The notes below the pieces were generated by a model that saw nothing but the letters and a program-made list of their open reading frames with translations, ran no database searches and was not told where the DNA came from. A DNA stretch of 64,000 bases from a virus, in the IMG/VR virus record IMGVR_UViG_3300009130_000005, positions 52,467 to 116,466 of that record. One strand, given 5' to 3'. Positions 11,663-52,967 of the stretch are shown here, piece by piece; position 1 is the first letter of the stretch, and every line of letters starts with the position of its first letter. The position numbers were made by a program, and so were the translations under genes.

Positions 11663-14600
11663 ATGACAAATTTGGAAAAAGCTATTAACGCAATGGAAGG
11701 AACAAAGCTAGAAATAGAAGACATAATTTTTAAAGTTGGAGATGCCAAACAGAGTCCCACGGAAGACGAGCTACTCAATTTACTAATTGGAGTACAGGCA
11801 TTATTTTCAGTTAGACAGGAGAGAATAAAGCAAGAGTTAAATAATATTTCTGAACCGCATCATTTTAATGAGCAAGCATAATCTTTATATTGCCCCTAAA
11901 CATGGTAAATATAAATTAATAATTACAGATAAAAAAACTAAAGAAGAAGTCCTCTTAGCTGAAGACGAAAACCAATCAAATTTATTACAAATAATGGATC
12001 AATTTGCTAGGTCCAAATATTCAAGACAATTAACTGGAAGCGATATATACCTATATGAAGGATAAATTAAAAGAAGAACAAATAAAAACTCCACTCAAGG
12101 TTCAAGAAGAGCAAGAAGAAATAAAAGAAGTAGAAAAAGAAATCAGAGATATTGAAGCAGAACTTGATTGGGCTGAATCTCAAGCCTCGGATGATTATAA
12201 ATACATTACTCATCTTGAGCATAGACTTGATAAGCTATACGAGAAATATAACCAAATGGATAATTATGAATCCTTCTAAACCTAGCATCAAAATGCCCCA
12301 TGTTGGTCTCTGCGAAGTAGAAATTCATTATTCTCCCGACTTAATTAGAAATAGAATTTCATATGGTTTTTGGAAGCCAATTGTTGAGAATATGGCATGG
12401 ATGCCTTTTCACAAATTAGTTCATGCAACTAGCATTATGTGGAGCCAAATGGATTCTGCTCATAAATTCGGAACAATGAGGCAAGCAGGTTTTGAGCTAG
12501 AATCGCTTGCTCTCTGTCTTTTAGAAACAAAAAAGAATTTTAATCTTGACAAATAATCAACTAAGTAGTATACTTATGTCATGTCTAAAGAAGAAAAGTA
12601 TCTTAAGCAAATAATTAGCTCCTGCGAGCTTATCCTTGACGACCTTGAGCAAGGTGCAAGTATATCTCAAAGAGACTTTAATATGCTAGGTCATGCAGAT
12701 GAAATAATGTTCAGTATGCAACAGAATGTAAGCAAGGAGCTTAATCCATCTCATTATAATATCAATGCAGGATATAGTAACAATAATAAATAGCTTTTTT
12801 ATTTTTATAGGATGTTTTATTGGTCTTTGGTTGGTAATGTTTTTAGCTTTTTTTTACGATGACTAGGATTGTAGATCGGATGGTAGAAGACCTCTTAAAT
12901 CTCTATTATAAACAAGCCTCTGAACTTCGTAAAGGAACTATTTTTGGAGGGTGGCATGAAGATGATGTAGAAAAACTAATCTCTAGAGCCTTATGGAGAC
13001 ATGGAAACCAATCTATTACATTAAAAATTAATAAAGAGCTAGACGATCATCATATCAGCGTTGAAATTGTAGACATAGAAAAACCAAATAATGAAGAATA
13101 ATATTTTTGAGAAGATTATGGTTATAGAAGACCACATAAATAAGTTACTACAAGATTTAGATTTAGGTTTTGAGCATTGTGAAAAAAATCACGATGAGAT
13201 TACACAAGAGCTTGTTAATGCTTCAAAATCAATTTCAAAAATATATAGACTAAATAAGGAAAATTTTGATGGCTGACTTTTGTTTGGATTGCGCAGAGAA
13301 TCTTTTCGGAAAAGAATTACCTTCTGACTTTGAAGGTATTCTAACAGAAGAAGAAGAAGGGTATACAATATCGGTTCTATGCGAAGGTTGTGGCTATATT
13401 GAGGTAGATCATTTAGGTAAAAAGGTAGATAAAGAATGTTAAACAAATACAAAAGAGAAAAGAATAAATCCCAAATATTCAAAGACTACCATGTGGTTGT
13501 CGATGAAGATGGAATAGAAAGAGACTATTGGTTTTCTGCTCAAAGCGAAGATCATGCTTTGGATATGTTTGCAACATTTGCAGAAGCTAAAAACCTTAGT
13601 GCAGAAATAATAAGCGTCACACAAGAATGAAAATCAAAGTAGGGTTAAGGGGTAATTCAGATGCAGTATATGGTGTCATCATAAAGTTTGATGACCTTAG
13701 CCTTGTAAGTTCTGACAATATTTTTCTTATCGGTGAAGAGAATAGAAATAAAATGGGGAAAGACCTAGTTTCATTGCTTGAGTCTTTGTCTTGTGTCGAT
13801 AACCAAATAGAAATAGGTGATAAATTAATCCCAATGATTGAGAGAGAATTAAATATAGAAGAAGGAACTTTAAATAGATTTATAAATGAGTGAATCACAA
13901 TATAAGATATACAAATTAATAAGGAAATTAATGAATGATCTTTCTGAAGAAGATTTGAAAGAATTAATTTTAGAAACAAATCAACATGACAGAGGATGAA
14001 TCAATTCGCCCTTGGGGGTATGGTTACAATAGTGCCTTGCGAATCCTTAGAGAGTTTGACAAAAAAGTATTTGACTTGACAGATAAGGATGATATATATA
14101 ATGTAGGTAAATCTAATTTATATAATATCCAAAAAGATTTAATCCATGAAATATATGGAGCAATAAAAAAAGAGAAAGAAGAATATACCGATGACCAATT
14201 TAGTTAATTTTATAAAAAGATTGTTTCGATTATTCCGCAGGGAGAAAGAGCCGAAATTATCTAAAGCACAAATAGACGAACTAATTGAATCAAATAAAGA
14301 CATACTATCTAAATTAAAAGATTAATGAAATTATCATTGACATTACATGGAAAAACTTATAGCGTAGAATCTGATGAGCAATTCGATGGAACGCAAGTGT
14401 CTGAATTGGTTGAGCAATTCAAAGGTTTACTTGTTAATGCAGGGTATCATCCACATAATGTTGACGAGCTTTTTAATACAGAATATCAATGGTTTAATAA
14501 TGAAGATTCAGACTTAGAAAAGCGAGTAAAAACTTTATACGGAGATGACGAAAAAATAGAGCCAAATAACAATGAGTGAAATAATGGATGATTTCGATGC

Positions 14601-27556: not shown

Positions 27557-29182
27557 ATGGGGAAAGAAGCCGATAGAGAAAGAGCCATAATGCGAGAAGT
27601 AATCAAGCTCCACAAGAAAATTGATTATCTTACAGACCAAGTAATGGAGCGACTAGACAAAATGACAGGCGAACAAGCCCAAAAAGATTTTCCGTTTGCA
27701 CCTACGCCTGACGAAGGTATAAAATCAATAAGAATAAAAGGAAGAAACAATGAGTAAATCCGCAACTTGCAGTCGCAATAGTAACATCCAACGCAATATC
27801 GAGAATGGACATTACATCCATAACTCTCGATTCCGTAACTACGGAGAACTTCCCGAAGACCGCCCAAGTTGGGACTTTCGGGTAAAGCGTCACGGACAAG
27901 CACTTGCCAAACTAGAACAAGCAGAAAGAAAGATTCGTAAACATGGATAATTCAACACAAAAATATGTGGAGTTTGATAAGCTCCAATGGGTATGTAATA
28001 AGCCTTTGCCAAGTGTCGGCACAGAGGTAAATGTCACTATCAATGGCATTGGTCGTTCGGTAGTAGAAAAGTATTTCGTGGAACACGGATTCATTGGACT
28101 TATTGTTCAGCCACAAAATCCACCGACTTGGTATCGAGAGCAAAATAAGTCTACGAAGGATTCGGCACTTTATGATTGGACTCATTGCCATGTATTTCCT
28201 GCGGAAGTCTCCGAGCTTCAAGTTCGGAATAATGATGGGAAAGCAGACGAAGAGTTCTACAAAAAGGTACTTCACCCTGCATGATTGATTCAGAAAACTT
28301 TTATCTTGTCAAGCAGATTGCTGACCTTCTTGAAAAGAAACTTGATCTCAAGGTTAAGGATCACGGAATGTGGAGAATACAATGTCTCATACATGATATG
28401 ATTGAAGAGAAAGAACATATAACAAATAATAAGGAGAAAGAGAAAATTCATTTAGCGTAATATAATAACAATAAACAAAATCTTTGTAAATAAGCGGTTG
28501 GCGTAAGTCCTTCGAGCGGAGGGGTTTGCAAAAATCGCCCGCCGATTTTCTTGAGTTTGTCAAGCTAAATGATTGATAAACTTGTTTGTGAATCATATTT
28601 GCGTTTTTTGATTCACAAACGCTAAAAAACTTTTTTCAATTTCACAAAGAAAAAGGTTGACTTCACCCCAAAACCTGTCATACTAGGTACTATGAATTAC
28701 GCACAAGAACAACTAGAATACCTTGAGTGGAAGGCTCAAGCCGAACAAGAAAAACGATATCACCCATGCGACATTAGCGAGGGAGTCTATGCTCTAGTGG
28801 ATGATGATAGTCCTAGCGAATCGCCAATGTTTTTCCTTACATTGGAAGGAGCATCAACTTATGCAGAGGGAAGTTACCCTTATTGCAATGGCAATTGGTC
28901 GGTATATAGAATTGGTCAAAAGGTAATGTAACTTTTTCCTTGACAAAGCACCGATAATTTGAGAGAATATATACTATGACACAAAGAAATGCACACATCG
29001 ACACTCCCGAACAAATTGACGCTTTCAGAGCAAGAGTATTGTTGAGGGGATTGAAACTAGAAACGCTAGGAATGACTAAACGAGGAGCATCTTGTTATTC
29101 CATTATCAAGCAAGAGTATGGGCTGAAGGGCAGTAAGCAAAAAGTTTACGAGAACTTCAAGAAAATCCTTGACATGAGATAG
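27557..29182 (+). other. Small hypothetical CDSs (27557, 27750, 27943, 28692, 28976)
   Basis: ORFs behind TTGAC promoters at about 27519, 28657 and 28940. Confidence 0.65.
28531..28549 (+). repeat. Composite element copy 1 (core palindrome)
   Basis: AAAATCGCCCGCCGATTTT. Confidence 0.9.
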
Positions 29183-32345: not shown

Positions 32346-32364
32346 AAAATCGCCCCACGATTTT
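32346..32364 (+). repeat. Composite element copy 2
   Basis: AAAATCGCCCCACGATTTT. Confidence 0.9.
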
Positions 32365-34011: not shown

Positions 34012-35329
34012 ATGCAAGTATTGAAACAAATTATTGAACATTGGGGTTTTGTTGACTCTCAACAATTACCCGAACTAGCAAAGCATTTTCCCGATACTCC
34101 GCTTGTTATCAAATGGGGAGCAATGCCAAGAGAGCAAATCGTTGCATCAAAAGTTGCTGAACGCATCAAAGAGGTTGAGCAATGGAATCAAGACTATGTT
34201 CGTGAGGTTTTTATTTGCTCTGAACAATTTCGCAAGCTCAAAGAAGTTTTTGGGTTGACAGATGCCTCCTAATCTGAGAGAATACTATAATGCAAACAAT
34301 AGATATCACACCAACTTGGGAGGCTTGCGTCAAGATATACATGGCAGTCCTTGAAAATGAAAACGCATCCTTCACAGGAAAAAGAGAAGCGAGAGCAGAA
34401 CTCATTCGCCTAGCAAAGATAGTAGACAATCAGAACGATAAGGCAAAACAAAAGGAGGAAAACTTTCACCCCGATACAAAAGATAACAACCGATACAACA
34501 ACGCAGATGTTGATGTAGATATGCTAAACCAAATGTACAACCAAACTATATAATCATGGGCAAAAAAGCTAGAGAAAAAGGAATACCTAACGCAGAAACG
34601 CATAAAGCTCTGCACACAATCGCAAAGAAGTCTTCTCACGGAGGCAACAAACCATTGGTAGAATCTTTGACTAATCCTAATGTGATGGTCACGCAAAAGG
34701 TTCGCAAGGCACAAGAAAGAAGGAGGGCAGTATAATGGGAGAATGGGATTCATATATTGATGCAGTTGTCGCAGTAGACGAACTTGGCACTTTACCTCCT
34801 TTGGAGTCTGAACCCGAATACGATGCGGATTCTGACACATGGGCTTTACACTTTGAATACGAAGACCCTATGATGGGCGGTAACGATATGGTGACCTTGC
34901 ACTTCGATAAAGAAGAGGATGCAATCTTTACTGCAAACAAAATTGTAAGCGATAGGCATATCGCAATGTTGGAACTAGAAAGAAAGAAAGCTGAAAAAGT
35001 CCTTGACAAACAAGGCTAATTGTGGCATACTATATATTATGAAACTGAAAAAGAAAAAGACAAAACTCGAAAACACTATCACTAACCTTCTTGCGCGTGG
35101 CACAGCCATTGCAAGTTTTGACTACAACGGAGTTTCTCGTAATGTAATCATTGGGGCAAACGCATCGTCCCAAGGAGACAGGCAATGGGGGCAAATGTCC
35201 AACAAGGCTATTGTTGAACACAAGGGAAAGAAGTATCTTTCTGCTCGTGTCAATAACGACATTGGTCATGTCAAGGCATTCTCCCTCGACAAAATTTCCA
35301 ATTTTCAAGTTGATGGTTCTGTAGTGTAA
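34012..35329 (+). other. Small hypothetical CDSs (34012, 34290, 34735, 35039)
   Basis: Packed ORFs; promoters at about 34255 and 35003. Confidence 0.6.
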
Positions 35330-35352: not shown

Positions 35353-35384
35353 ACGGAGGGTCCATTCGGGCCCTCCGTTTTTTT
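35353..35384 (+). terminator. Rho-independent terminator
   Basis: ACGGAGGGTCC-ATTC-GGGCCCTCCGT followed by a T-run. Confidence 0.85.
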
Positions 35385-35436
35385 GTATCCCTGCAAATAG
35401 GCAGTCATAAGTATTTGCTCTATCGGGGGTTACGAA

Positions 35437-35462
35437 AAAATCGCCCGCCGATTTCGTGCCAA
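35437..35462 (-). repeat. Composite element copy 3 with sigma54-like box
   Basis: Reverse complement reads TTGGCACGAAATCGGCGGGCGATTTT. Confidence 0.9.
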
Positions 35463-35565
35463 TTTCACAAGTATCTAATGGGTAGGCAGATAGGCTCACA
35501 AAAAAAAACACCCGATTAAGCTTTTTTTTCTTGCAATTACCTCAGATTCTGTCATACTTATAGTT

Positions 35566-35691
35566 ATGAAAGTGAGAGAGATAAAGATAAGAAAGACCAT
35601 TCTTTTCACCAAGTCTCGCCCACACAAGGTAAAGAAGAACACACTACATCGCAAACGCAAACACAAGGAGAACCTAAATCATGTATCTTAA
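35566..35691 (+). CDS. Small basic ArfA-like peptide (41 aa, not in ORF track)
   Basis: MKVREIKIRKTILFTKSRPHKVKKNTLHRKRKHK; own promoter; paralog at 40525-40629. Confidence 0.6.
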   Translation: MKVREIKIRKTILFTKSRPHKVKKNTLHRKRKHKENLNHVS

Positions 35692-35976
35692 CGAAGAATA
35701 TAACGAAAACGAAATCACTACCGCACTTGACGCAAACGAGCAAGCTATGGACTTGGTTTATGAGTTCGCAATCGCTCCAATGGAGAAAGAAATGACAGAA
35801 GAACAAGCCTACGCAATCGCTATTGCAGGTGCAACCTTGAAGACCATTGCCCAAAAAGCATACGCTTACGAAAAAATGCAAAAAGGTCAAAATTTGCAAA
35901 ATTAGGGGTTGACAAACGCACGAATTTTTGAGATAATTATAACCATAATCAAGATAATCCAACACGAAAAAAAATT

Positions 35977-36729
35977 ATGAATAGACTAAACCTAAACATC
36001 TGCGGTGGCGAACATACTAAAGTGGGCTTCGATGAAGTCTGTGCAGTAGAGACTCCGCAAGCTACTGAAACTTGGCGACCAATCAGCCATAGCTACCTCA
36101 TCGACAGGGTTCGCACCCATCTTGATGACAATGGCTACGAGATTGTCGCTGAAAACCACAACCTCGCTCGTTTCGGGCAACGCTACTTTGGATTGTTCCA
36201 AGTAAACAACAAGGACAGAGAGCAAGGCGATAGAGGCACTATCCTCGGACTTCGCAATGCTCACGACAAGTGCTTTCCTGCAGGACTTTGTGCAGGTGAC
36301 GCTCCTTTCGTTTGCGACAACCTTGTTTTTCACAATGAGATTGTCCTTGCTCGTAGGCATACCAAGAACATTATGACTGACCTTCCGCAAGTCATCGCTC
36401 GTACCATCGGCAAGTTGTCGGGTATGTGGAACACTCAAGACAAGCGGATTGAGTCCTACAAGGACTATGATGTCACCAATGCTCAAGCAAATGACCTTGT
36501 CATCCGTGCTTACCAAGCAGGAGCAATCAGCAAGGCAAAGATTGCTGATGTCGTTGAGCAATGGGAAACTCCCGAACACCCCGAATTCAAGGATAGGAAC
36601 ATGAACTCCTTGTACAATGGGTTTACGGCAGTTCTCCGTGGCGGTGTCATGCAGTTGCCAAAGCGTTCTGACGCTCTGCACTCTGTTCTTGACTCTGAAG
36701 TCGGACTGACTCTCGCAACCAAATCTTAA
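35977..36729 (+). CDS. DUF932-family protein
   Basis: TPQATETWRPISH, LGLRNAHDK, FVCDNL, RRHT and LYNGFT motifs. Confidence 0.8.
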   Translation: MNRLNLNICGGEHTKVGFDEVCAVETPQATETWRPISHSYLIDRVRTHLDDNGYEIVAENHNLARFGQRYFGLFQVNNKDREQGDRGTILGLRNAHDKCFPAGLCAGDAPFVCDNLVFHNEIVLARRHTKNIMTDLPQVIARTIGKLSGMWNTQDKRIESYKDYDVTNAQANDLVIRAYQAGAISKAKIADVVEQWETPEHPEFKDRNMNSLYNGFTAVLRGGVMQLPKRSDALHSVLDSEVGLTLATKS

Positions 36730-36753
36730 TCATAAACCATAGGAATAACTGAT

Positions 36754-36996
36754 ATGAAGCATAACAACCTCTCATCTGTTCTCAATAACCTCAAAGGGCG
36801 ATTCGTTTCGGTTCTTGTCAAGGATGGTGCAAATCGCACTTCCTATTCGGCAAAGCTGAAGAGTCACAACTCTGAGGTGGTAACCTTCGTTGATACTAAC
36901 GAAAGCAAGGGGCGAGTCTTTCGCAAGGTTCGCAGGTCTGCGGTGCTTGGGCTGAAAAGCGGTAAGCATTCGTTCCGTAGGACGAAAGCCCTGTAA
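36754..36996 (+). CDS. Small basic hypothetical protein
   Basis: ORF with AGGA ribosome-binding site. Confidence 0.6.
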   Translation: MKHNNLSSVLNNLKGRFVSVLVKDGANRTSYSAKLKSHNSEVVTFVDTNESKGRVFRKVRRSAVLGLKSGKHSFRRTKAL

Positions 36997-37065
36997 AGGG
37001 CAAATAGGCAAATAGCCGACCAAATAGTCCCAAGGGCGCAAGCCCTTGGGGCTTAGTGGTTTACG

Positions 37066-37092
37066 GAAATCGCCCAGCGATTTTCATGCCAA
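37066..37092 (-). repeat. Composite element copy 4 with sigma54-like box
   Basis: Reverse complement reads TTGGCATGAAAATCGCTGGGCGATTTC. Confidence 0.9.
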
Positions 37093-37111
37093 AGTTTTTT
37101 TGAGAAAAGGC

Positions 37112-37139
37112 TTGACTTATGGCTGACTTCTGTCATAAT
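37112..37139 (+). promoter_or_regulatory. Sigma70 promoter for the ncRNA locus
   Basis: TTGACT-N16-CATAAT with extended TG; no ATG follows. Confidence 0.75.
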
Positions 37140-37169
37140 TGTATTCAGTTCTTTTGATAATCAAGTTGT

Positions 37170-37295
37170 GGGCTTGTAGCTTAGTCTGGTCTAGAGCCTT
37201 GTCCTCCTTCATCGTGAAATTCTAGATAAATTAGCGAACGGAGTAATTACCCGTGGAGCAAACAAGAGGCGGGGGTTCAAATCCCTCCAAGCCCT
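37170..37295 (+). ncRNA. tRNA-like RNA with a 57-nt structured insert in place of the anticodon loop
   Basis: GGGCTTG/CAAGCCC acceptor stem, TAGCTTAGTCTGGTCTAGAGC D-arm, TTGT/ACAA stem, GGGGGTTCAAATCCCTC T-arm; no encoded CCA. Confidence 0.8.
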
Positions 37296-37329
37296 GCTCT
37301 TTCAGTAGATGCAAACGCATTGAACAACG

Positions 37330-37520
37330 AGGCGTCAGTACACGCCTACAACCCTTCGGGGAGAGAGAAAGAGGTACAACACACAACACTTTGGGCATAC
37401 AACGGACAAGGCTATGGCGAATGAGTTATATCTTGCCAAGGATAGGAGGCGAAAGCCGTTTGAACTAGCAGTAAGAATAGCAACAAGTCGGTGGGATGCG
37501 AGTGGTTGACCAATGCCCAA
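37330..37520 (+). ncRNA. Putative structured ncRNA(s)
   Basis: AGGCGT/ACGCCT hairpin, CCC-TTCG-GGG, GGC-GAAA-GCC and a TTGGGCAT/ATGCCCAA closing stem. Confidence 0.55.
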
Positions 37521-37574
37521 TCTTTTTCAAAAAAAACCCTTGACAAAAACACATAATCTGTCATACTTATAATC

Positions 37575-38413
37575 ATGAATAACACGGAATCACAATTAGC
37601 TTCATTTGAAAATTTGGAATTCAATCAACACCCTCGCTTTGCTGAAGGCACGGCTATTCAAGCGAGACTCAAGTTTGGGTCGAGAGACCAATTTGAGATT
37701 TCAGTCGTCCAAAACATTGGAAGTGGCACAGGCTTATATGGTCACGAGGATGACAACACTTACGAAGTCGCAATGTGGTTCGATGGAAGAAACACCATGC
37801 TTCCCTTATCTCTTTACGACGATGTTCTCGCAGGACAATCTCCAAGCGACATCACTCGCCTAATGCATCAAGCACATCTCAACGATTTTGCTTGGGTTAC
37901 CCTTCTTCACTCTTTGCGAGACGAACATCGCAAGGAAATGGAGCTTGACAACTAACCTTAACTCTGTCATTATATATGAATTACTCAACCATAGAAGGTT
38001 GCATAAGACAATCAACACAAAACAAAATTATGGATACACAAAACAACCAATATATAGTTCTCAAGAATGGAGAACCAATGAACATCAAAGGAACGCTTGA
38101 GCAAATTACTCATCATGTACGCTTGCTAGAGCAAGGACTCAATCGACACCTCCAACACTCACCCTATACTATCGGCAAAGCCGATGCAAACTAATTACAA
38201 ACAAAAAAAGGTATAACTATGAACGAATTCATAAATGCGGTAGATAAAATTGTAACGGCTCAACTTGGACTAAGCGTCCATGACTTAGAGGACTTTGCTT
38301 TTTGCGATTACTATGACGAAACTTTTGACCCCGATGGTTACGACTATCAAAATGCAGTCGAATCCTGTGCGGAAGATTTTCTCGCTGAAGTTGGGAATCT
38401 CTTTGTGATGTAG
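37575..38413 (+). other. Small hypothetical CDSs (37575, 37976, 38219)
   Basis: Leaderless ORFs after promoters at about 37540 and 37944. Confidence 0.65.
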
Positions 38414-38497
38414 TGATGTGATTAGTCTCTAGGGCGAAATAGGAAGATGCCAAATACCTACCCTAGTTCGCAAGTCCTTAGGCATCAGGGGCTTGCG

Positions 38498-38516
38498 AAA
38501 ATCGCCCCGCGATTTT
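38498..38516 (+). repeat. Composite element copy 5
   Basis: AAAATCGCCCCGCGATTTT. Confidence 0.9.
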
Positions 38517-38805
38517 TTTAAAGCGTTTTGTAAGTAATTAGCCTCCAATGCTTTACGAAAGAAAAAAAGTTAGTTTTATGCGTTTTTGGGGTTGACTTAA
38601 CCCCCTATTTCTGCATAATGGTATATATGAACGCTAAAGAAAGAATGAATGAATGGAAAAAGCTTCCCGCTAACACTATCCCGTGGGAAACTTTCAAACG
38701 CCTAGTGTCTCAGTTCGGAATGGACGAAGGCATAAAGAAAGCTCAAAAGATAATTGAAAAAAAGGGTTGACTTCACACGAAAATCTGTCATACTAAAGGG
38801 ATATT

Positions 38806-39528
38806 ATGATAAAACAAACATTGCTCACATCAGGAAACGCTAAAATTGTCAAGGGCGAAAAACTTGGCTACATTACAAAAGGGCTTCACTTCGCTCCTGC
38901 AAACCTTTCGGGGTTTGAGGTTTGCCGTTGGAGAAGCAAGGGTTGCACAATGGCTTGCCTCAACACAGCAGGTCGTGGACAAATGGACTCTATTCAAAAT
39001 GCTCGCATCGCAAAGACAAAGCTATTCTTCGAGAAGCAGTTTGACTTTCTTGCAAAGCTAACAAAAGAGATTGCTTCCACTATCAAGTCAGCAGCCAAGA
39101 AAGAAATGCAAGCAGTTTTTCGTTTGAACCTCACGAGCGACATTGCATGGGAATCTGTTTTCTTTGATGAAGAAAAGCCTCAAAACATTTTCGACAAGTT
39201 TCCCGAAACGAAATTTTATGATTACACTAAGTCTTTCGGGCGTATGGCTCAATTCCTCAATGGCGAGTTGCCAAGCAATTACCATTTGACTTTCTCAGCT
39301 TCCGAGCATAACCAAAAGCTAGTCGAGATGGTTTTGGAAATGGGGGGTAATGTTGCCGTGGTCTTTCGTGACCAACTGCCTTGTACTTGGAAGGGTTTTG
39401 AAGTTGTCAATGGTGATGCAAACGATTTGCGTTTCCTTGACAAGTCGGGCGTGGTCGTTGGGCTTATCGAAAAAGGTCTTGCCAAAAAGGACGAAACAGG
39501 ATTCGTACAGGAAGGGGTAAATTCATGA
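38806..39528 (+). CDS. Phage gp88-like protein (Cys-cluster, radical-SAM-like)
   Basis: VC......C...CL..AGRG, RLNLTSDI.W, FYDYTK, YHLTFS and GD..DLRFLD motifs. Confidence 0.8.
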   Translation: MIKQTLLTSGNAKIVKGEKLGYITKGLHFAPANLSGFEVCRWRSKGCTMACLNTAGRGQMDSIQNARIAKTKLFFEKQFDFLAKLTKEIASTIKSAAKKEMQAVFRLNLTSDIAWESVFFDEEKPQNIFDKFPETKFYDYTKSFGRMAQFLNGELPSNYHLTFSASEHNQKLVEMVLEMGGNVAVVFRDQLPCTWKGFEVVNGDANDLRFLDKSGVVVGLIEKGLAKKDETGFVQEGVNS

Positions 39529-39767
39529 GTGACTATTACGAATCAGCAAAAGGAATAATGATAACGAGAGACCGAGCCTTGCAAGAGATTCGGAATCACA
39601 ATCTAGAAAACTTTGAAGAATTTTTTGAAGACTTAGGAGACAGAGAACATTATGATGCACAATCCGTCTTGATTTGGCTAGGATACTAAATAGCCAGTTT
39701 TCAGGACATTCAGCAAATAGGCAAATAGCTAGTCTTGACCTAAGTTACTCAGTAGTAGGCATTTGCG

Positions 39768-39794
39768 AAAATCGCCCCGCGATTTTTATGCCAA
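39768..39794 (-). repeat. Composite element copy 6 with sigma54-like box
   Basis: Reverse complement reads TTGGCATAAAAATCGCGGGGCGATTTT. Confidence 0.9.
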
Positions 39795-40524
39795 TCGCCT
39801 AAGCTCTTGATTGAAAAGCTGTTAGGAGGGCCAAACCCATACCATTGCCAAGATAGCAATGACGGGCCAACCCATAACAAAAACTAATTGTGCTAATTCC
39901 ATATGATTACCTTTCGTTGAAAACTCCTGCGTTTTGCTCTTGGAACTTGAAGTGGCTATCGTGGCAACGAGAGCGAGAACCGCCAAGCTCACGAAAGTTT
40001 CGAATCTCACGAGAGACTTCAAAGCGAGCTTGCCAAGCCTTACCCCAAGCGTCAGATTGCTCTTGTAGAGACTTTGAGGAATCCCAAAGGGCGTTGCACT
40101 CTCTGTTGAGAGTTTCGAATTTTTTGTTCAATTCTTTTATTTCTAACATAAGTATAATCTAATCTATTTTTTCGTAAATTGCAAGCAAAAAGTGATAAAG
40201 TTATTCACATTGCATAGCTTTCATTTCATCTCCAATCTCTTTCATGATTCGGGCTTGCTCGTTTTCTTTGTCGAGCTTTGCCTTTTCATGCTTGAGGTCG
40301 AAAAGTTGACCTTTCAGATCTCTAAGAGTTCCGCCAAAAACATCGTTGGCAACTGCGATAGTCATTGCAGTTTCGGGCGTAGCCCTTGCGTTCATGCGAT
40401 CAAGTGCGTTTTGCATTTCAGCAATTTCAATTTCCTTAAGGCGAATGTGTTCTTCTATTTTCATCAATTTCATATATATAATGTAGCAGAGTTAGTTAGT
40501 AATTGCAAGCAAAATCGTATCAAG

Positions 40525-40629
40525 TTATTCACAATCTTTCTTGTGCTTAACCTTGCGTGAGTATTTGGACTTGTCCTTGTGAGGGCGAGCCTTAGTGAAA
40601 ACGATTGGGATTCTTACCTTAACTTTCAT
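40525..40629 (-). CDS. Small basic ArfA-like peptide (34 aa, not in ORF track)
   Basis: MKVKVRIPIVFTKARPHKDKSKYSRKVKHKKDCE; TTGACA promoter immediately upstream. Confidence 0.6.
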   Translation of the reverse strand: MKVKVRIPIVFTKARPHKDKSKYSRKVKHKKDCE

Positions 40630-40718
40630 ATATAGAATATAGCATATAAAGTTAGCTTTGTCAAATTCTTTTTTCAATTATTTTGCAATGCAAACCTCTG
40701 ACTATCAAAGGCTTAGCC

Positions 40719-40737
40719 GAAATCGGCGGGCGATTTT
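40719..40737 (-). repeat. Composite element copy 7 (core inverted relative to copies 1-6)
   Basis: GAAATCGGCGGGCGATTTT on the + strand. Confidence 0.9.
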
Positions 40738-41005
40738 CGACTCAGAAGTCGTGCTGGGCGTGGTAGCCGTAGTCGATGTCCTCAGACTCCTCGAAGTCGA
40801 GGAGGGCAACCCTGTCCTGCAGGTCACCGATTTCGTTGCGAATCGCAACTCGGTCAGCAACCGAAAGGACGCAGTCCTTAAGGGTTTCGTGAAGGATGGA
40901 GATTTCTTTGAGCATTTCTGATTTAGTCATACATACAACATACCCAAGAAACAGGCAAAAGTCAAGAAAAACTTTCAACTATTTTATGGACTTATTCTAT
41001 CAGGA

Positions 41006-41031
41006 AAAATCGCCCGCCGATTTCGTGCCAA
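41006..41031 (-). repeat. Composite element copy 8 with sigma54-like box (26 bp identical to copy 3)
   Basis: AAAATCGCCCGCCGATTTCGTGCCAA. Confidence 0.9.
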
Positions 41032-41264
41032 AAACTTTTTTGCTAATTTCATCATTTTTTGCTTGCGTTTACCTTGCTTTCTGTCATTATATAGGGATGA
41101 ACACAACAAGAAAACCTCTAACCTTAGATTATACAAAATGGACATCCTAACAATTATTGCTCTTACGATCATTCTTTTTCGAGAAATTCAAAATTTTTAG
41201 TTGACAGAACTTAAAAACTAGTCTAGTATCATATACAGAATCAAGATTGCTAACCTAAACAAAA

Positions 41265-41903
41265 ATGAACATTGCACAAACTATTGATCCCAAACTCATC
41301 GAAAACTCCCTCAACTCTGTTGCAACCAATGGGGTAACGCATCACGGCTACGCTTTTGAAGAGTTTCTTATTCTCGCCCTTGGATTTACCGAGGAAGATG
41401 GCACAACCTACCGATCCGTCAAGCAAGGTGGAACTCAACTTCACAACCAAGATTTCGACATTCCTGCCGAGGTTGTCGCTCGCAATCCAATCATTCCCCA
41501 AAGTCTCCAAGGGAATTGGTCGGTTAAGGCTTGCGAACATGGCAAGACGATTGGCTTAGGCATGGCAAGCAATCAGTTTGACGCATGGGCTAAGGATGGC
41601 ATCGTGCAAGCAATCGCATTCTACAAGAAAGAAGGTGATCGCAAGGTGGTAACTCATTTCTCAATCCATCGCATCGAGCCATCCGCAAAGCTATGGGGCA
41701 ACCTCACAAAGGAAAAGATTGCCGAGATCGACCCAATGGTTCGCAAGGACAAGTCGATCACATGGTCAAAAGAGCAAACCAAAAAGCTCAACAGGTCAGC
41801 AAACGGCATGATTGGGTTGCGTAACATTTCAAGAGAAAAGACCAACTCAAGAAACCTTCAATGCTACATGACTTTTTCCAATTATATGCAATTAGTTGCT
41901 TGA
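41265..41903 (+). CDS. Putative PD-(D/E)xK restriction-endonuclease-like protein
   Basis: HGYAFEE..., DFDIP and WSVK spaced like an E...D...(E/S)xK catalytic core. Confidence 0.45.
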   Translation: MNIAQTIDPKLIENSLNSVATNGVTHHGYAFEEFLILALGFTEEDGTTYRSVKQGGTQLHNQDFDIPAEVVARNPIIPQSLQGNWSVKACEHGKTIGLGMASNQFDAWAKDGIVQAIAFYKKEGDRKVVTHFSIHRIEPSAKLWGNLTKEKIAEIDPMVRKDKSITWSKEQTKKLNRSANGMIGLRNISREKTNSRNLQCYMTFSNYMQLVA

Positions 41904-41934
41904 CAAAAACCCTAGAATCTGAGAGAATACAATT

Positions 41935-42180
41935 ATGCAAAACACTACTACATACAACGGATGGAAGAATCACGCCACTTGGAATGTCGCACTTTGGATT
42001 GGTGGCGACCAAGGACTCTACGAGTTCGCCAAGGAATGCGAAAGCTACAACGATTTTGTGGAGCAACTCCGTGAGGTTTCGGGTGATAGCTCTATCGGAT
42101 ACCAAACCCCCGACAGGGTAGCTTGGAACGATTCGGGCATTGACATTCCCGAGCTAGACGAGTACATCGCAAACCTCTAA
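41935..42180 (+). CDS. Conserved phage hypothetical protein
   Basis: YNGWKNHATWNVALWI..D.GLY motif. Confidence 0.75.
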   Translation: MQNTTTYNGWKNHATWNVALWIGGDQGLYEFAKECESYNDFVEQLREVSGDSSIGYQTPDRVAWNDSGIDIPELDEYIANL

Positions 42181-42199
42181 CACTCAAAGCCTTACGCGA

Positions 42200-42226
42200 T
42201 TGGCACAGAAATCGCGGGGCGATTTT
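42200..42226 (+). repeat. Composite element copy 9 with sigma54-like box
   Basis: TTGGCACAGAAATCGCGGGGCGATTTT. Confidence 0.9.
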
Positions 42227-42676
42227 TAATCGATTTTTTTTTGCGCATTTCTTTGCCATTCAAGGGGTTATGCAATATTTTTGCACGAGATTGCATTTTT
42301 GGGCATTTTTTCTCCGCGAAGGGTGAAAGTTTTTTTGTTTTTCTATTAGTTGTATATCAAGGACTTATGACAATTTAAGGTAGCTGAATACGAATTTGCT
42401 TGCGGTTTTGTCAATTTCTGTCATACTGTATTACATGATTAAGATTAAGAAAGTAACCCCAAAGTTCACGAAAGGCGATGTCCTTATTTCACGAGACAAC
42501 AAAGTCTTTCAATTCATCGAGGCAGTCGAGCATGACACGCTTGGCACGATTGCCAAAGTTCGCCCTTACAGGACAAACCGAGAAGTCGGTATCCGTTTCG
42601 AGGATGTAAAACTTCATCCGTTTTTTTCTTAATTTAGCCCTTGACAGGAACCCCTTTTATCTCTAGTATTACAATC

Positions 42677-42961
42677 ATGACAGAATCACAAAGACTCGAA
42701 CTCATCGCTAACGCAGTAGCTTCCGCCAACAAGGTCGCTCCACAGTTTCAAGGACTCCTTGACGAGCTAAAGGCTGAAAAGCTCGCTGAGGACTTAGTTC
42801 TCGAACATGGTACTCAACACGCCTCGAAGGAGGACATTGAAGAGGAGTTTGTCTCCCTCGATGCAGTCGAGTCCGACAAGGACGACATTGACGAAGATGA
42901 CGAGAACGTTGTCGATATGGATTTCGTCAGCGAGTCCATGCGTGAAATTTTCAATTCCTAA
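42677..42961 (+). CDS. Acidic small protein, paralog A
   Basis: MTESQRLELIAN...; highly similar to 46397-46690. Confidence 0.8.
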   Translation: MTESQRLELIANAVASANKVAPQFQGLLDELKAEKLAEDLVLEHGTQHASKEDIEEEFVSLDAVESDKDDIDEDDENVVDMDFVSESMREIFNS

Positions 42962-43162
42962 CCACTAACAGAAAGGCAATCATGTATATTCTCAAAAGTA
43001 TTCTCAACCAAGCGGGCGCCGTTTGGCAAGTCGAATCCATTGCCATGCGCAAGGTAGAGGCCGAAAGGCTTCTCAAGCGTAGGCTTTCAACCAATGACGG
43101 TTCTCGCCGTTACGGGTTGTTTCCCGCTTCATAAACCCTTAAGACTTAGCCACTTATGAAAG

Positions 43163-43188
43163 TGGCACAGAAATCGCGGGGCGATTTT
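43163..43188 (+). repeat. Composite element copy 10 with sigma54-like box
   Basis: TGGCACAGAAATCGCGGGGCGATTTT. Confidence 0.9.
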
Positions 43189-44359
43189 CGCTAACCCCTT
43201 GGACATCAGTAAGTTAAGCCCTAAAAAAAGATAACTTTCTTCATTTTTTTTTGCAATAGCCCTTGACAAAAGGGGTTTCCTGTGCTATATTATATACATG
43301 ATTAAGAATAAAACTAGACTCATCGAGATTCACGAATGGACTTCATTCATCTCTGTCAAGATTCACGAAGATGGAGATTACCCACGGGTTCGCTCCGCAA
43401 GTACTCTCAAGTACTTCAACGAGATTCTGAAGGATGAGCTTTCGCACGCCCGTTCTCTTGGTTACGAGCCACAAATCAAACGCTCAGGCGTTGGCAAGTT
43501 TGGCGGTATCAAGTACAAAGACTTGCACAAACTAAAAAGTGCTTGACAAAAACCCTCAACTTCTCTATATTACAACCATGAATAGAAAACAAGAATTGCA
43601 AAAACTTATCGACGAAAACCTTAGCGAAGCCGAAGCAGGCGACTCAAAAGCAAGGGGCATCGTTATCAACGCACAAGCCGAGCTTGACGATATCGCCAAC
43701 GAAGAAGGCGAATCCGCTTGGGAACTTTTCGCACAACAACAAAGAAATTTGATTGAATTTAGCTTGACTTTCTGAGCTAAGTTTCATAGAATGCCTTTAT
43801 ATTATGAAAAACATCACACAAGAAATCCAAAGACTAACCTCAACGCTTCAAGCTTTGACTCAGCAAAGAATCCTTGCCATGCAACAAGGTAGGCATTCAG
43901 AAGCTCAGCAGATTCAATCTGTGCAAGTTGACATTGACAACAAAATCCAACAACTAGAGAAAAACATATGAAAATTTTTGACAAAATCCGCATAACAGCA
44001 GACGAGCTTATCAAGTCTGAAATTCTTGAGGCTGTATCTGAGCAAATCCGAGTTCCCTCTTCAAGCCTTGCAGATTGCAGGGAGTGGTCTAATTGGGACT
44101 ATTCGGGCATCTATTTCGTGCATAGCAACAAAAGATGTGCAAGAGTTTGGATTGACGAAGAAACCTTCAAAGCAACCCGTTGCGAACTATTATGATGACA
44201 GAACTAATTATCGCCTTGGGACTCGCAAGCTCTGCTTGTTGCGTCCTTTTTCTTATTCAAGCCTTTCTTGAGCATAGAGAACTCGAGAAACTCAAAAAAG
44301 AATTTGAGGAGCTTGAGGAAATGGAGTTCTAACTACCTGAATCTCAATGCTTTAGGCGA

Positions 44360-44386
44360 TTGGCACAAAAATCGCGGGGCGATTTT
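44360..44386 (+). repeat. Composite element copy 11 with sigma54-like box
   Basis: TTGGCACAAAAATCGCGGGGCGATTTT. Confidence 0.9.
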
Positions 44387-45793
44387 GGGTATCTCTTTGA
44401 TAACCAACGACTTAACCCCGAAAAAAAACAAACTTTTTTCGCAATTTCATCATTTTTTTCTTGCAATTAGCCCAAAACTAGTTTATCATGTAGGCATGAA
44501 TAAAATTGAAAAGATTGAAAAGCTCCAAAAGGACATTGCCTTTTGGCAAGACAAACTCAACCGCTCACGCAAGGAGTCTCTCCGCTCCATTCGTGCGGTA
44601 CATCTCAACCACGCACGAAACGAGTTGAAAAAACTTCAAGAAAGTGCTTGACTTTTTCGCAAAACTAGACTAGATTATATACCATGAACACTACTACTAA
44701 ACTAATCAATTCAAAGTGGGATGCAATCCATTCCGCTCAAACCACTATGGGCAATGTCCGAAACGACTTGTTTGATAATGTCGCCCTTGCCTTGTCTCGC
44801 ATCGAGGGAAAACTCGCATTTCTCAATTCAGATGATACGCTTGACGGCAAGCCAAGAGTGACTGAGGGTCATTCCCAAGAAGTTGCCAAGCAAGTTCAGC
44901 AAGAAGTTGCTGACACTCGCAAGGCATTGGACAAGATTTTTGTTCAACTAACCGATGGTAAGAACTCACTTTTTGACTCCTAAGATTATGCCTTACAAAA
45001 CACAATCAGAAATCCTTTACAAGTACCCCGATAGCGGTGACGAGTTCGTTACCCATGCAAGTGGTCGTCCCGACATACGAGAGGGTTATGGAATGACTGA
45101 AGATGATGCTTGCAGTCGTGAGTGGTTCGAGAAAGGTGGTCGCAACAAGGTTGTCATTCTCAAGTCTGAGCAGATTAGCCAAGACGAGTACAACCAATGG
45201 ATTGACCATTGCAACATCAAGTATGAACATATCTCTCGCAACCATCGCAATGGGGTAGAGTAAAAAAACCCTTGACATATTCGCCATATTACTACATACT
45301 CATATTATGATTACGATAAAAAGACACCCAAACCTAGACAACTGGATAAATGTTCTACGCTTCAACAAAGTTATGGAGCAAACCACTTCAAGAGTCAAAG
45401 CGTTGAAACTCGCAAAGACTTTTTCCAAAAAGTTCAACGAGCCAATGGTGGACGCTGACAAGGGAGAGATTCATTTGCGTCATGGGTAACCTACAAAAAC
45501 ATCTCGAAAAAAACAATCCTTTCGTGATTACATCCATTGACAGAAGGACAATTATTTTGCGTAAGGATTCGGAACATTACACACCAAAGAAAAACGACAG
45601 AATCTTGTCTATTGATTGCGTACTCGCAAACTCGGACAGGTTGAGAGAGATACAAGAAGGGATTTTTGAGTTGCTATGAGTTGGGATATTTTACTTTTCT
45701 TGCCGTGGGTTGCCGTGTTTTGGGTTATGTTTGTTGACCTGTTCAGCATGGACTCAGATTGGTAAGTTGTTGCGATTCAGTCACTTGCAGAAG

Positions 45794-45819
45794 TGGCACA
45801 GAAATCGCGGGCCGATTTT
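45794..45819 (+). repeat. Composite element copy 12 with sigma54-like box
   Basis: TGGCACAGAAATCGCGGGCCGATTTT. Confidence 0.9.
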
Positions 45820-46396
45820 CGGCATCCCCTTGATAGTCAATGAGTTAAGCCTGAAAAAAAGATAACTTTTTTCGTTTTTTTGTGTTTTAGGGGTTGACTT
45901 TCGGGGATTTTCTGTCATACTGCAATGTATGATAAACATTAGCATATTCGCCATCGTTTCCTTTTTCGCTTGGTCTGAGCAAGCCCAAACCTCCGAGGAG
46001 TTGCCATCCCTAGAGGCAAGCCCTTTCGCTTCTGATTTCGGCACAAGTGCCGAGCATAGAGCAAACATGGAGTGGCACGCTTCACACATCGCCAAACTAC
46101 AAGAAGAAAAAAAGTAAAAAAACTTCATTTAGTCCTTGACTTTTACGGATAATTCCATTATATTTTACATATGATTAAGATTGAAAAGAACGAAAACTTC
46201 AAGCAATTCCTTAACATCTTCGTTGGAGGTTTCCTTGTTGACCAAGTAAAAAGCCGAGCAGAAGCTCTCAAGATTGCAAACAAGCTTTGCAAGTCAAGAA
46301 ACGAAAAGGGATTTTCCTTTCTTGGTTTTCCAATGGAAAAGGGCGAAAAGTAAAAAAACCCTTGACAAAAACCCTTTTATCTGATTGAATACTATT

Positions 46397-47009: not shown

Positions 47010-47396
47010 TTACTCGATTTTAAGTAATTTCCTTTTTTTTGCTTTCTTTGGCACGGTAACAGTTAATATACCATCTTGAACCTTAGCAGATGCAGAGTCA
47101 GGGTCAACATCACTATATACCGCGAATTCTCTTTTAATCTCTGAATTCATTCTATCGTTAATCTTTTTTGATCCTTCTATAATTACTCTATCATTTAGTA
47201 CTTCAACTTTGATATCTTTCTTGCTCAATCCAGGAACAGTAGCAGTAATTACATACTCCCCATCTTTTTCCTCTACATCTGTCTTAAACTTATAGGAACT
47301 CATTGCGGAATCCACAATTGAATTAGAGTCAAGATTAAAAAAATCGGACAGCAAGGAGCTTCCGAAACCATAATAATTGTTAAGTGAATTTTTCAT
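47010..47396 (-). CDS. Small heat-shock protein (Hsp20/alpha-crystallin)
   Basis: TDVEE...YVITATVPGLSKKDIKV and AKVQDGILTVTVPK motifs. Confidence 0.93.
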   Translation of the reverse strand: MKNSLNNYYGFGSSLLSDFFNLDSNSIVDSAMSSYKFKTDVEEKDGEYVITATVPGLSKKDIKVEVLNDRVIIEGSKKINDRMNSEIKREFAVYSDVDPDSASAKVQDGILTVTVPKKAKKRKLLKIE

Positions 47397-47407
47397 ATAT
47401 TCATATT

Positions 47408-47424
47408 TGCAATATACGTGCCAA
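47408..47424 (-). promoter_or_regulatory. Sigma54 (RpoN) -24/-12 promoter of hsp20
   Basis: Reverse complement reads TTGGCACGTATATTGCA, a perfect consensus; predicted +1 falls at about the ATG. Confidence 0.85.
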
Positions 47425-52002: not shown

Positions 52003-52967
52003 AGATTTTAGTTTCGGGAGCAGGAGGCTTTATCGGCGGTTTTTTAGTAAAATCTTTAATTGATTGCGGTCACGAGGTTATTGCTGTAGATATTAAAAAT
52101 AAATCAAACTGGCTTCAGATTTTTAACGCCGCAAAAAATATTCAGGCAGATATGCGTTTAAGAGAAAACTGGATAAAAGCGTCAAAAAATATAGATCGCA
52201 TATATAACCTTGCGTGCAATATGGGGGGAATGGGTTTTATTCAGAATAACCACGCCTTATGTATGGAGAGTGTTTTAACTCAGGCTCATGCATTAATTGC
52301 CGCTAGGGAGAATGGCGTTAGAGAAATTCTTTATAGCTCTTCGGCTTGTGTGTATCCTATTGGACTTCAAGATGTTGTGAAAGATAGTTTAGATCAAGGC
52401 CTTAAAGAATCAGATGCAATTCCAGCGAACCCTGAAGATGGTTATGGTTGGGAGAAACTATTCAGTGAGATTATGACAGGGTATTTCTCTCGAGACTTTG
52501 GAATTAATTCAAGAATATGCAGATATCATAATGTCTATGGCCCGTTTGGGACATGGAAAGGGGGAAGGGAGAAGGCTCCCGCAGCAATTTGCCGAAAAGT
52601 TATAGAAGCAAAAATAAACGGGGGCAATGAAATCAAAATTTGGGGAGACGGCGAACAAACAAGATCGTTCATGTATATAGATGACTGTATAACTGGAATG
52701 GATTTAATTTGGTCAAAGGGTGATTCTGAACCCTTAAATCTCGGTAGCAACGAAATGGTTTCTATCAATCAGTTGGTTGATATAGTTGAAGATATTGCTC
52801 AAGTTAAGTTAAAGAGAATTTATAATACAGATGCTCCTGTAGGCGTTAGAGGTAGAAATAGTAACAACGATTTAATTAAGGCTAAAATAGGATGGAGTCC
52901 TTCTATTAAACTAGAAGAGGGCATAGAAAAGACATATAAATGGATATATGAACAATTCCCAAAATAA
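51999..52967 (+). CDS. NAD-dependent epimerase, GDP-mannose 3,5-epimerase-like
   Basis: GAGGFIG, NMGGMGFI, SSSACVYP, YGWEK and GGREKAPAA.CRK motifs. Confidence 0.9.
   Translation: MKILVSGAGGFIGGFLVKSLIDCGHEVIAVDIKNKSNWLQIFNAAKNIQADMRLRENWIKASKNIDRIYNLACNMGGMGFIQNNHALCMESVLTQAHALIAARENGVREILYSSSACVYPIGLQDVVKDSLDQGLKESDAIPANPEDGYGWEKLFSEIMTGYFSRDFGINSRICRYHNVYGPFGTWKGGREKAPAAICRKVIEAKINGGNEIKIWGDGEQTRSFMYIDDCITGMDLIWSKGDSEPLNLGSNEMVSINQLVDIVEDIAQVKLKRIYNTDAPVGVRGRNSNNDLIKAKIGWSPSIKLEEGIEKTYKWIYEQFPK

Follow-up and report, generated by a model that had tools for sequence, protein, structure and literature searches.

A repeated palindrome with sigma-54-like arms in the early region of an uncultured marine phage: a candidate docking site for host sigma-54 RNA polymerase

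Introduction

The early-type region of virus record IMGVR_UViG_3300009130_000005 raises the question of why a phage should place sequences that resemble promoters read by sigma-54 (RpoN), an alternative sigma factor, beside a repeated palindrome in the spacers between its small genes. The stretch analysed here, referred to as the window, is the right 64 kb (64,000 nucleotides, positions 52,467 to 116,466) of this 116,466-bp IMG/VR record, which is classed as linear and ~76% complete. Intergenic spacers between 28.5 and 45.8 kb of the window hold 12 copies of a 17-bp palindrome, AAATCG-N5-CGATTT (the core), and many of these adjoin a TGGCAY sequence (the arm) that sets a GG and a GC at the distance seen between the -24 and -12 elements of sigma-54 promoters. 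The explanation developed below, to which a probability of about one half is assigned, is that the palindrome is a phage-specific border element to which sigma-54 RNA polymerase of the host docks, located in a shuffling region resembling those that contain the stem-loop elements known as PeSLs (promoter-early stem-loops) in T4-type phages.

A palindromic core with sigma-54-like arms

Allowing up to four substitutions from the commonest copy, a search of the whole 116,466-bp record recovered cores starting at 28532, 32347, 35438, 37067, 38499, 39769, 40720, 41007, 42209, 43171, 44369 and 45802 of the window, with no further copies elsewhere in the record. The pattern TGGCAY-N7-GC has 11 matches in the window compared with 2.06 +/- 1.43 in 100 shuffles, and 11 was reached in none of the 100. 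Eight of the 11 matches adjoin a core, at 35447-35461(-), 37077-37091(-), 39779-39793(-), 41016-41030(-), 42201-42215(+), 43163-43177(+), 44361-44375(+) and 45794-45808(+), and the other three, at 35098(+), 41597(+) and 47409(-), lie away from cores. A preliminary description of this DNA had reported TGGCAY beside 8 of the 12 cores, and the same sequences were recovered at the same places and on the same strands. It had further claimed that GG-N10-GC is kept even when the palindrome shifts by 1 nt, which is so for all eight arms of the window, the compensation being apparent in the pair TGGCAC-G-AAATCGGC and TGGCAC-AG-AAATCGC.

Conservation of the spacing in related phages

Scans with the exact core led to three viral contigs that carry 9, 8 and 6 cores in syntenic early regions. 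Eleven further contigs were kept from 119 metagenome stretches on the grounds of low GC content in combination with more than one core or with a core flanked by a TGGCA/TGCCA arm; L098, L099 and most of the 119 stretches were dropped as chance core matches in high-GC DNA. The window and these 14 related contigs (15 contigs in all) contain 71 elements, in which arms were searched for with spacers of 1-4 nt. Twenty-one elements have no arm, 40 have one and 10 have two, giving a total of 60 arms. GG-N10-GC is present in all 60, either as a 2-nt spacer followed by GC (34 arms) or as a 3-nt spacer followed by C (26 arms), with no mixed forms and no spacers of 1 or 4 nt. Conservation of this spacing in homologous elements, on which the preliminary description had made its sigma-54 proposal depend, thus extends across the 15 contigs.

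Positions of the arm that the search left unconstrained point in the same direction. The base before TGGCA is T in 52/60 arms, position 6 is a pyrimidine in 60/60 and position 7 is a purine in 59/60. These preferences follow the sigma-54 -24 consensus YTGGCAC(G/A). The commonest arm of the window agrees at 14 of 17 positions with the experimentally confirmed E. coli glnA site TTGGCACAGATTTCGCT, which likewise has TCGC at -12 (PMC4591121, table 1). Slippage in the A-run of the core should yield arms that break the rule, and their absence (0/60) is an argument for selection on the spacing. A comparison of identity between arms and flanks was given no weight, as it is circular for sets that were chosen for having TGGCA.

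A sigma-54-type promoter upstream of hsp20

One gene of the phage appears to have a genuine sigma-54 promoter. The hsp20 gene (47010..47396, minus strand; 128 aa, Pfam HSP20 1.2e-15) is preceded by a canonical -24/-12 box, TTGGCACGTATATTGCA, at 47408..47424 on the same strand, 12 nt from its ATG; this is one of the three TGGCAY-N7-GC matches that lie away from cores. Based on the rule that transcription starts 19 nt after the centre of the 17-mer (PMC4591121), the predicted start is 47397, one base before the hsp20 ATG. A box of the form TTGGCAYG-N4-NTGCA stands 12-13 nt upstream of the ATG in 4/4 related phages. The orthologues in three viral relatives are 72, 49 and 41% identical in sequence, and each has TTGGCATG-N4-NTGCA in upstream DNA that has otherwise diverged. 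Since the start-site rule places the hsp20 start 1-2 bases before the ATG, the message would be leaderless, like those of the sigma-70-driven early genes of this phage. No inverted repeat common to the four phages was found upstream of hsp20 that might serve as a shared enhancer. hsp20 is the one phage gene with a conserved, real-looking sigma-54 promoter, and these phages probably use the host sigma-54 transcription route. The promoter could also serve as an internal positive control for experiments.

Canonical boxes also arise by chance. The perfect box TGGCAC-N5-TTGC at 35098-35112 (+) lies inside a conserved 96-aa open reading frame (ORF) but is not kept at synonymous sites in relatives, and it was rejected as a real promoter and ascribed to a conserved codon run. 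As this box is not conserved, conservation can tell chance matches apart from the hsp20 box and the arms. Outside the window, a perfect sigma-54-type box is found at G000:C1:32241-32255 (-), antisense inside a 247-aa ORF.

The probable host

The best clue to the host is a DUF1501 gene, which the phage carries together with PSCyt2/PSD1 (DUF1549/DUF1553) genes at G000:C1:8357-11757, outside the window. In a set of 75 confirmed loci from contigs representing one genome per species, the nearest relatives of DUF1501 belong to Verrucomicrobiota at 46-50% identity, many of them labelled Akkermansiaceae or Verrucomicrobiales, and the Planctomycetota sequences are nearly all at 31-38% identity with one exception near 49%. 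This points to Verrucomicrobiota as the probable host clade. The UDP-glucose dehydrogenase gene of the phage had no match in genome contigs, its nearest neighbours being viral clusters.

A host without rpoN had been named in the preliminary description as incompatible with a role for sigma-54. Of five Verrucomicrobiota genomes from the probable host clade, 5/5 encode the Sigma54 DNA-binding domain, and each has 3-6 Sigma54_activat genes. Homologues of hsp20 occur in 2/5 of these genomes, each with one sigma-54-like box ~70 nt upstream in the right orientation, and this box is the only one in 3.3 kb. Predicted sigma-54 promoters are enriched at chaperone genes, including those for small heat-shock proteins, in Planctomycetota and Bacteroidota, according to PMC12316311.

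Orientation of the arms

The preliminary description had the boxes diverge from a centre at 41-42 kb. The division is real in this genome, as four left-pointing arms (35447, 37077, 39779 and 41016) are followed by four right-pointing ones (42201 to 45794), a perfect 4/4 split that simple arithmetic gives a probability of 1/70. The polarity is absent from relatives, however. Arm directions are mixed in the syntenic regions of contigs G001-G003, the order in G001 being <-, <-, -><-, <-, ->, <-, -><-. Since it is not kept in relatives, the polarity is treated here as a feature of the order of modules in this genome and not of the element. Tail-type copies, which follow genes, are found at 35-40 kb and cassette-type copies, which have a fixed distance of 92 nt to the next promoter, at 43-46 kb; the left/right split is regarded as a side effect of how these module types are distributed. 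The composite element itself has a polarity of its own, from arm to core to a conserved distal flank, and it occurs in both orientations relative to transcription.

Possible mode of action

From the motif, its spacing rule and conservation, the genuine-looking hsp20 promoter, and the presence of rpoN and activator genes in the probable host clade, we infer binding of sigma-54 polymerase and, with it, every consequence of binding considered here. The arm, (T)TGGCAYR-N6-GC, would be a docking site for the host sigma-54 RNA polymerase holoenzyme that has been grafted onto the 17-bp palindrome marking the borders of early-gene modules. The palindrome would provide the -12 GC and the arm would provide the -24 GG exactly one helical turn off, and the palindrome would then span approximately -18 to -2 of the putative promoter. 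Occupancy of module borders is favoured over promotion of mRNA synthesis, in that a stable closed complex could mark or insulate the border and tie up sigma-54 polymerase. Alternatively, an activator could trigger firing from the elements, resulting in read-in on some copies and antisense transcription on others. In a very unlikely elaboration of this scheme, the palindrome would extrude as a small cruciform in supercoiled DNA and present a fork junction right after the -12 GC, which would either lock sigma-54 polymerase at module borders or allow it to fire without an activator; the elements would then form a family of hairpin-gated sites that partitions and reshuffles the early genes.

Several observations weigh against docking by sigma-54 polymerase. 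The earlier sigma-54 proposal gains from the conserved spacing, the rpoN genes of the probable host clade and the conserved hsp20 promoter, but it is weakened by the absence of T at -14, which is found in 0/60 arms. The base at this position is C in 26 arms and G in 34 because the position falls within AAATCG, whereas TGC stands there in each of the six hsp20 promoters that were examined. T at -14 is frequent but not obligatory, since the confirmed E. coli glnA site has a C. For the majority form CGGC (34/60 arms), the E. coli sites compared offer no parallel (PMC4591121). The direction of the arms is likewise unrelated to that of the genes: five arms of the window are sense and three are antisense, pointing into the 3' end of the preceding gene, and G001 has three sense and six antisense arms, for a total of eight and nine. 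At a convergent gene junction in G001, the arms of a two-armed copy point into both genes. No ORF was found at a predicted start site of an arm, and hsp20 is the only ORF of the entire genome that begins at a suitable distance from a box. With neither gene direction nor ORF starts to tie them to, the arms are probably not mRNA promoters, which agrees with the earlier view that these are not ordinary promoters.

Further points count against this reading. Intragenic sigma-54 sites in E. coli had no roadblock effect (PMC4591121), and the presence of sigma-54 in the host is deduced from the probable host clade. The four phage records (39-76% complete) yielded neither a gene for sigma-54 (RpoN) nor a genuine activator gene. 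The PF00158 matches in the phage, which belong to an 832-aa open frame with two matches to the AAA+ model, were rejected as a genuine activator; as a control, the PF00158 model had matches in 14/14 reference genomes. An enhancer for the phage arms was not detected. The core evidently works without an arm, given that 21/71 cores are armless, and it is specific to the phage, with 12 copies in 116 kb, while five genomes of 4-7 Mb from the candidate host clade contain 0, 0, 3, 0 and 0. As the core is not enriched in the genomes of that clade, something other than sigma-54 probably reads it. The two-armed elements (10/71) have a constant 22-nt gap and a perfect outer dyad, which fits a dimeric DNA-binding protein. 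Finally, three orthologous positions are found in both spacing states across genomes, and the 3-nt state is always TGGCAT+RA, so the rule may be maintained by gene conversion between copies instead of by independent compensation. Conversion explains the switches between spacing states as well as repeated compensation does.

Alternative explanations

It is possible, if doubtful, that the arms are the outer half-sites of an extended dyad, TTGGCAYR...core...YRTGCCAA, which is the operator for a phage-encoded (or other) dimeric protein at module borders, the likeness to sigma-54 promoters being coincidental. The common dyad centre of the two-armed elements would be expected of such an operator, as would the phage specificity of the core, the lack of T at -14 and the free orientation relative to genes. 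Against a dimeric protein, however, 40/60 arms are single-sided and orthologous single-arm states are stable across genomes. Moreover, the dyad centre of the arms is half a base pair off the AAATCG/CGATTT centre, and on our reading one symmetric protein therefore does not fit both. The match of the unconstrained arm positions to the -24 consensus, and the occurrence in the same phages of a real-looking sigma-54 promoter of the same TTGGCAYG flavour, also argue for docking by sigma-54 polymerase over a dimer operator. An explanation judged hardly credible is that a repeat family propagated through duplication and conversion carries the arms along as neutral passengers, with a sigma-54 likeness devoid of function. 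Two arm-plus-half-core 'alleles' could give rise to the spacing rule through conversion, and arms have been lost at some orthologous positions, for example at 38499 and 40720 of the window. Such passengers should nevertheless include the rule-breaking products of A-run slippage, which are missing, and arms persist where the flanks are only ~50% identical, though this last comparison is biased in that the sets were chosen for having arms.

The element could instead act as RNA, by forming a hairpin that terminates or attenuates transcription in both directions in the manner of PeSLs; its copies would also be recombination points, and TGGCA would matter only as a loop or as the partner in an alternative stem. 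This is improbable, although the core is built as an A-run, a stem and a T-run and the positions of some copies are suggestive. Four copies lie upstream of a near-consensus sigma-70 promoter, as described for PeSLs (PMC4122927), with core to -35 distances of 92, 92, 92 and 93 nt for the -35 elements at 43263, 44461, 45894 and 38592; the distance is 45 nt at 37067. Some copies have a third arm, GCGATT, just upstream of TGGCA (39760-39800, 42195-42235 and 44350-44390). Copies with the upstream GCGATT can fold differently, into a hairpin whose loop contains GGCAC (-11.5 to -12.1 kcal/mol, z -2.2 to -2.5). Against this, the hairpin of the core is weak: a single centroid fold contains it, at -7.8 kcal/mol, and 41-nt segments reach -8.9 to -12.1 kcal/mol often by way of the alternative stem; only 1/12 cores (42207-42227) passes a terminator scan. 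Two copies, at 35438 and at 13023 of G002 (with a counterpart in L146), are already preceded by a canonical hairpin-plus-T-run terminator, so that core and arm lie in the spacer, which speaks for a role at the DNA level. The occurrence of the arm-core-distal flank composite in both orientations relative to transcription also argues against an RNA element, and a stem in RNA leaves unexplained why spacer length is tied to the core base that follows in 60/60 arms.

Structured RNAs initiated at the arms fare no better. A conserved RNA downstream of sense-pointing arms was rejected, the folds there being no better than those of shuffled sequences (z +0.40 and +0.95, with one copy at -2.09). Tail-type copies have strong hairpins on the side away from the arm; in 14/15 such copies the fold is better on the gene-sense strand than on the strand that would be transcribed from the arm, although the rows are partly orthologous and thus not independent. 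Mismatches on the latter strand are, by our reading, G-U pairs on the sense strand in the copy at 38499 of the window (W_38499), in L163/L216 and in G1_11593. Because the gene-sense strand folds better, the distal hairpins belong to the 3' end of the upstream mRNA and not to an arm-driven RNA.

A hint that the copies are recombination points comes from metagenome contigs of four marine runs, which join modules that are not adjacent in the window between 34000 and 47500. Joints occur at promoter repeats (35567>37522, 37545>38635 and 43522>46351) and at elements (35387>40720 and, inverted, 41008>46785). These joints were read from metagenome contigs at 85% likeness with short sides, and they hint weakly at population-level shuffling of modules resembling PeSL-mediated exchange.

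Comparison with known systems

The arms resemble sigma-54 promoters such as E. coli glnAp2 in having TTGGCAYR at -24, GC 10 nt from GG and the TCGC variant at -12 (PMC4591121). In contrast to sigma-54 promoters as a class, no arm has T at -14 and the region from -18 to -2 is filled by a palindrome. The arms also differ from sigma-54 promoters in being placed on both sides of some copies, often directed into the 3' end of the preceding gene, and in that the phage carries these sites in at least 8 copies. E. coli has intragenic and antisense sigma-54 sites, and many of the sites that are bound do not qualify as classical promoters; proposals discussed for such sites include roles as decoys or in interference (PMC4591121). 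Whereas the E. coli sites are scattered singles in coding DNA, the phage sites form an intergenic repeat family fused to a palindrome.

PeSLs of T4-type phages, as described in PMC4122927, combine a repeated stem-loop with a near-consensus sigma-70 promoter between small accessory ORFs in a plastic region, an arrangement also present here. Indels of modules distinguish related genomes and have their joints at the repeats, of which the metagenome contigs give a weak hint here. No sigma-54 box is part of the PeSLs described there. In the phage considered here the stem-loop composite occurs in both orientations. Nor does this phage belong to the T4 type: although it has rIIA, rIIB and a clamp loader, its terminase shows only ~25% identity to the enzymes of Clostridioides and Bacillus phages. 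In architecture the elements resemble PeSL cassettes and in sequence sigma-54 promoters, without belonging fully to either class.

Documented cases of sigma-54 use by phages are very few. Pseudomonas phage YuA is reported to depend on sigma-70 as well as on sigma-54, and one sigma-54-type promoter was mapped by cappable-seq (PMC10914365, citing Ceyssens et al. 2008). YuA resembles the present phage as a virulent phage that uses a host sigma-54-type promoter. It differs in that what the same source describes is a single ordinary promoter, with no repeated palindrome-fused array, in a host of another phylum. A literature search returned no description of a phage in which sigma-54 boxes joined to a repeated palindrome form an orientation-free array. 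Coliphage N4 has hairpin promoters for its virion RNA polymerase. Like the present elements, these have a short stem and a loop of 3 nt immediately upstream of a start site in phage early DNA, the start site being a predicted one for the elements. An N4-like virion polymerase was rejected for this phage, which has no giant gene (the largest ORF in the record is 857 aa) and whose early genes have sigma-70 promoters.

If sigma-54 polymerase does dock on the elements, sigma-54 could be recruited in an array, independently of orientation, for a role other than mRNA synthesis, which could be to insulate, to titrate a stress sigma factor or to exert antisense control. The PeSL-like shuffling of phage early genes would then be tied to a second host transcription route. 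The conserved leaderless hsp20 promoter links a marine phage of probable Verrucomicrobiota to the sigma-54 chaperone regulon predicted for PVC and Bacteroidota. New in this work are the hsp20 promoter as evidence of sigma-54 use, the probable host clade with its rpoN and activators, the spacing rule, the strand evidence against arm-driven structured RNAs, and the finding that the centre of polarity is not conserved.

Individual copies of the element

Four of the 12 copies are cores without an arm. These are copy 1 (28532..28548), copy 2, which is degenerate (32347..32363), copy 5 (38499..38515), whose orthologues in L126, L163, L201 and L216 have an arm, and copy 7 (40720..40736), which is located right after the stop codon of a minus-strand gene (40742-40931).

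The left-pointing copies are all on the minus strand. Copy 3 (35438..35461) consists of a core at 35438-35454 and the arm TGGCACGAAATCGGC at 35447-35461; its predicted sigma-54 start is ~35435, and the arm is directed back at a plus-strand gene (35039-35329) that is followed by a canonical terminator at 35353-35378. Copy 4 (37067..37091) has a core and the arm TGGCATGAAAATCGC, with a predicted start at ~37065 that is antisense to the plus-strand gene 36754-36996, and its orthologues in four related contigs (G001, G002, G003 and L146) have the 2-nt/GC form. Copy 6 (39769..39793), with a core and the arm TGGCATAAAAATCGC, has a predicted start at ~39767, antisense to the plus-strand gene 39525-39689. 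In a divergent promoter region, copy 8 (41007..41030) has a core and the same arm as copy 3, TGGCACGAAATCGGC, and its predicted start at ~41004 is co-directional with the minus-strand gene 40931-40742.

The right-pointing copies, on the plus strand, each have an arm followed by a core. They are copy 9 (42201..42225), with the arm TGGCACAGAAATCGC and a predicted start at ~42227; copy 10 (43163..43187), with a predicted start at ~43189 and a sigma-70-type -35 element at 43263; copy 11 (44361..44385), with the arm TGGCACAAAAATCGC, a predicted start at ~44387 and the -35 at 44461; and copy 12 (45794..45818), with a predicted start at ~45820 and the -35 at 45894.

Tail-type elements are preceded by a hairpin, and a short repeat, GCAAATAG, is present in 2-3 copies between this hairpin and the stop codon (36998-37025, 38425-38450, 39705-39722 and 35395-35405, all on the plus strand), and it is kept in relatives.

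Other features of the record

Genes of the record include rIIA, rIIB, an ATP-dependent ligase, a clamp loader and the large terminase, and genes for ribonucleotide reductase and a PolIII-alpha-type polymerase are located in its left part. Cultured phages yielded no close relative by megablast; the terminase has at most 28% identity to any record and rIIA at most 33%. The window between 26 and 47 kb is an early-type region with small ORFs, and sigma-70-like promoter matches are enriched in it (52 compared with 29.3 +/- 5.6 in shuffles). Among the plus-strand matches, at least 12 of 22 are near-consensus promoters that end 6-8 nt upstream of an ATG, for example at 37540-37577, 41900-41937 and 43263-43300. 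Given this short distance, most of the early genes look leaderless.

ARAGORN detected no tmRNA, and no RNA sequencing run was listed as containing this DNA. A tRNA-shaped RNA with an insert of ~55 nt is located at 37170-37295 (+) of the window; it scores 43.7 bits with the Rfam tRNA model, is not called by ARAGORN and has its own promoter at 37112.

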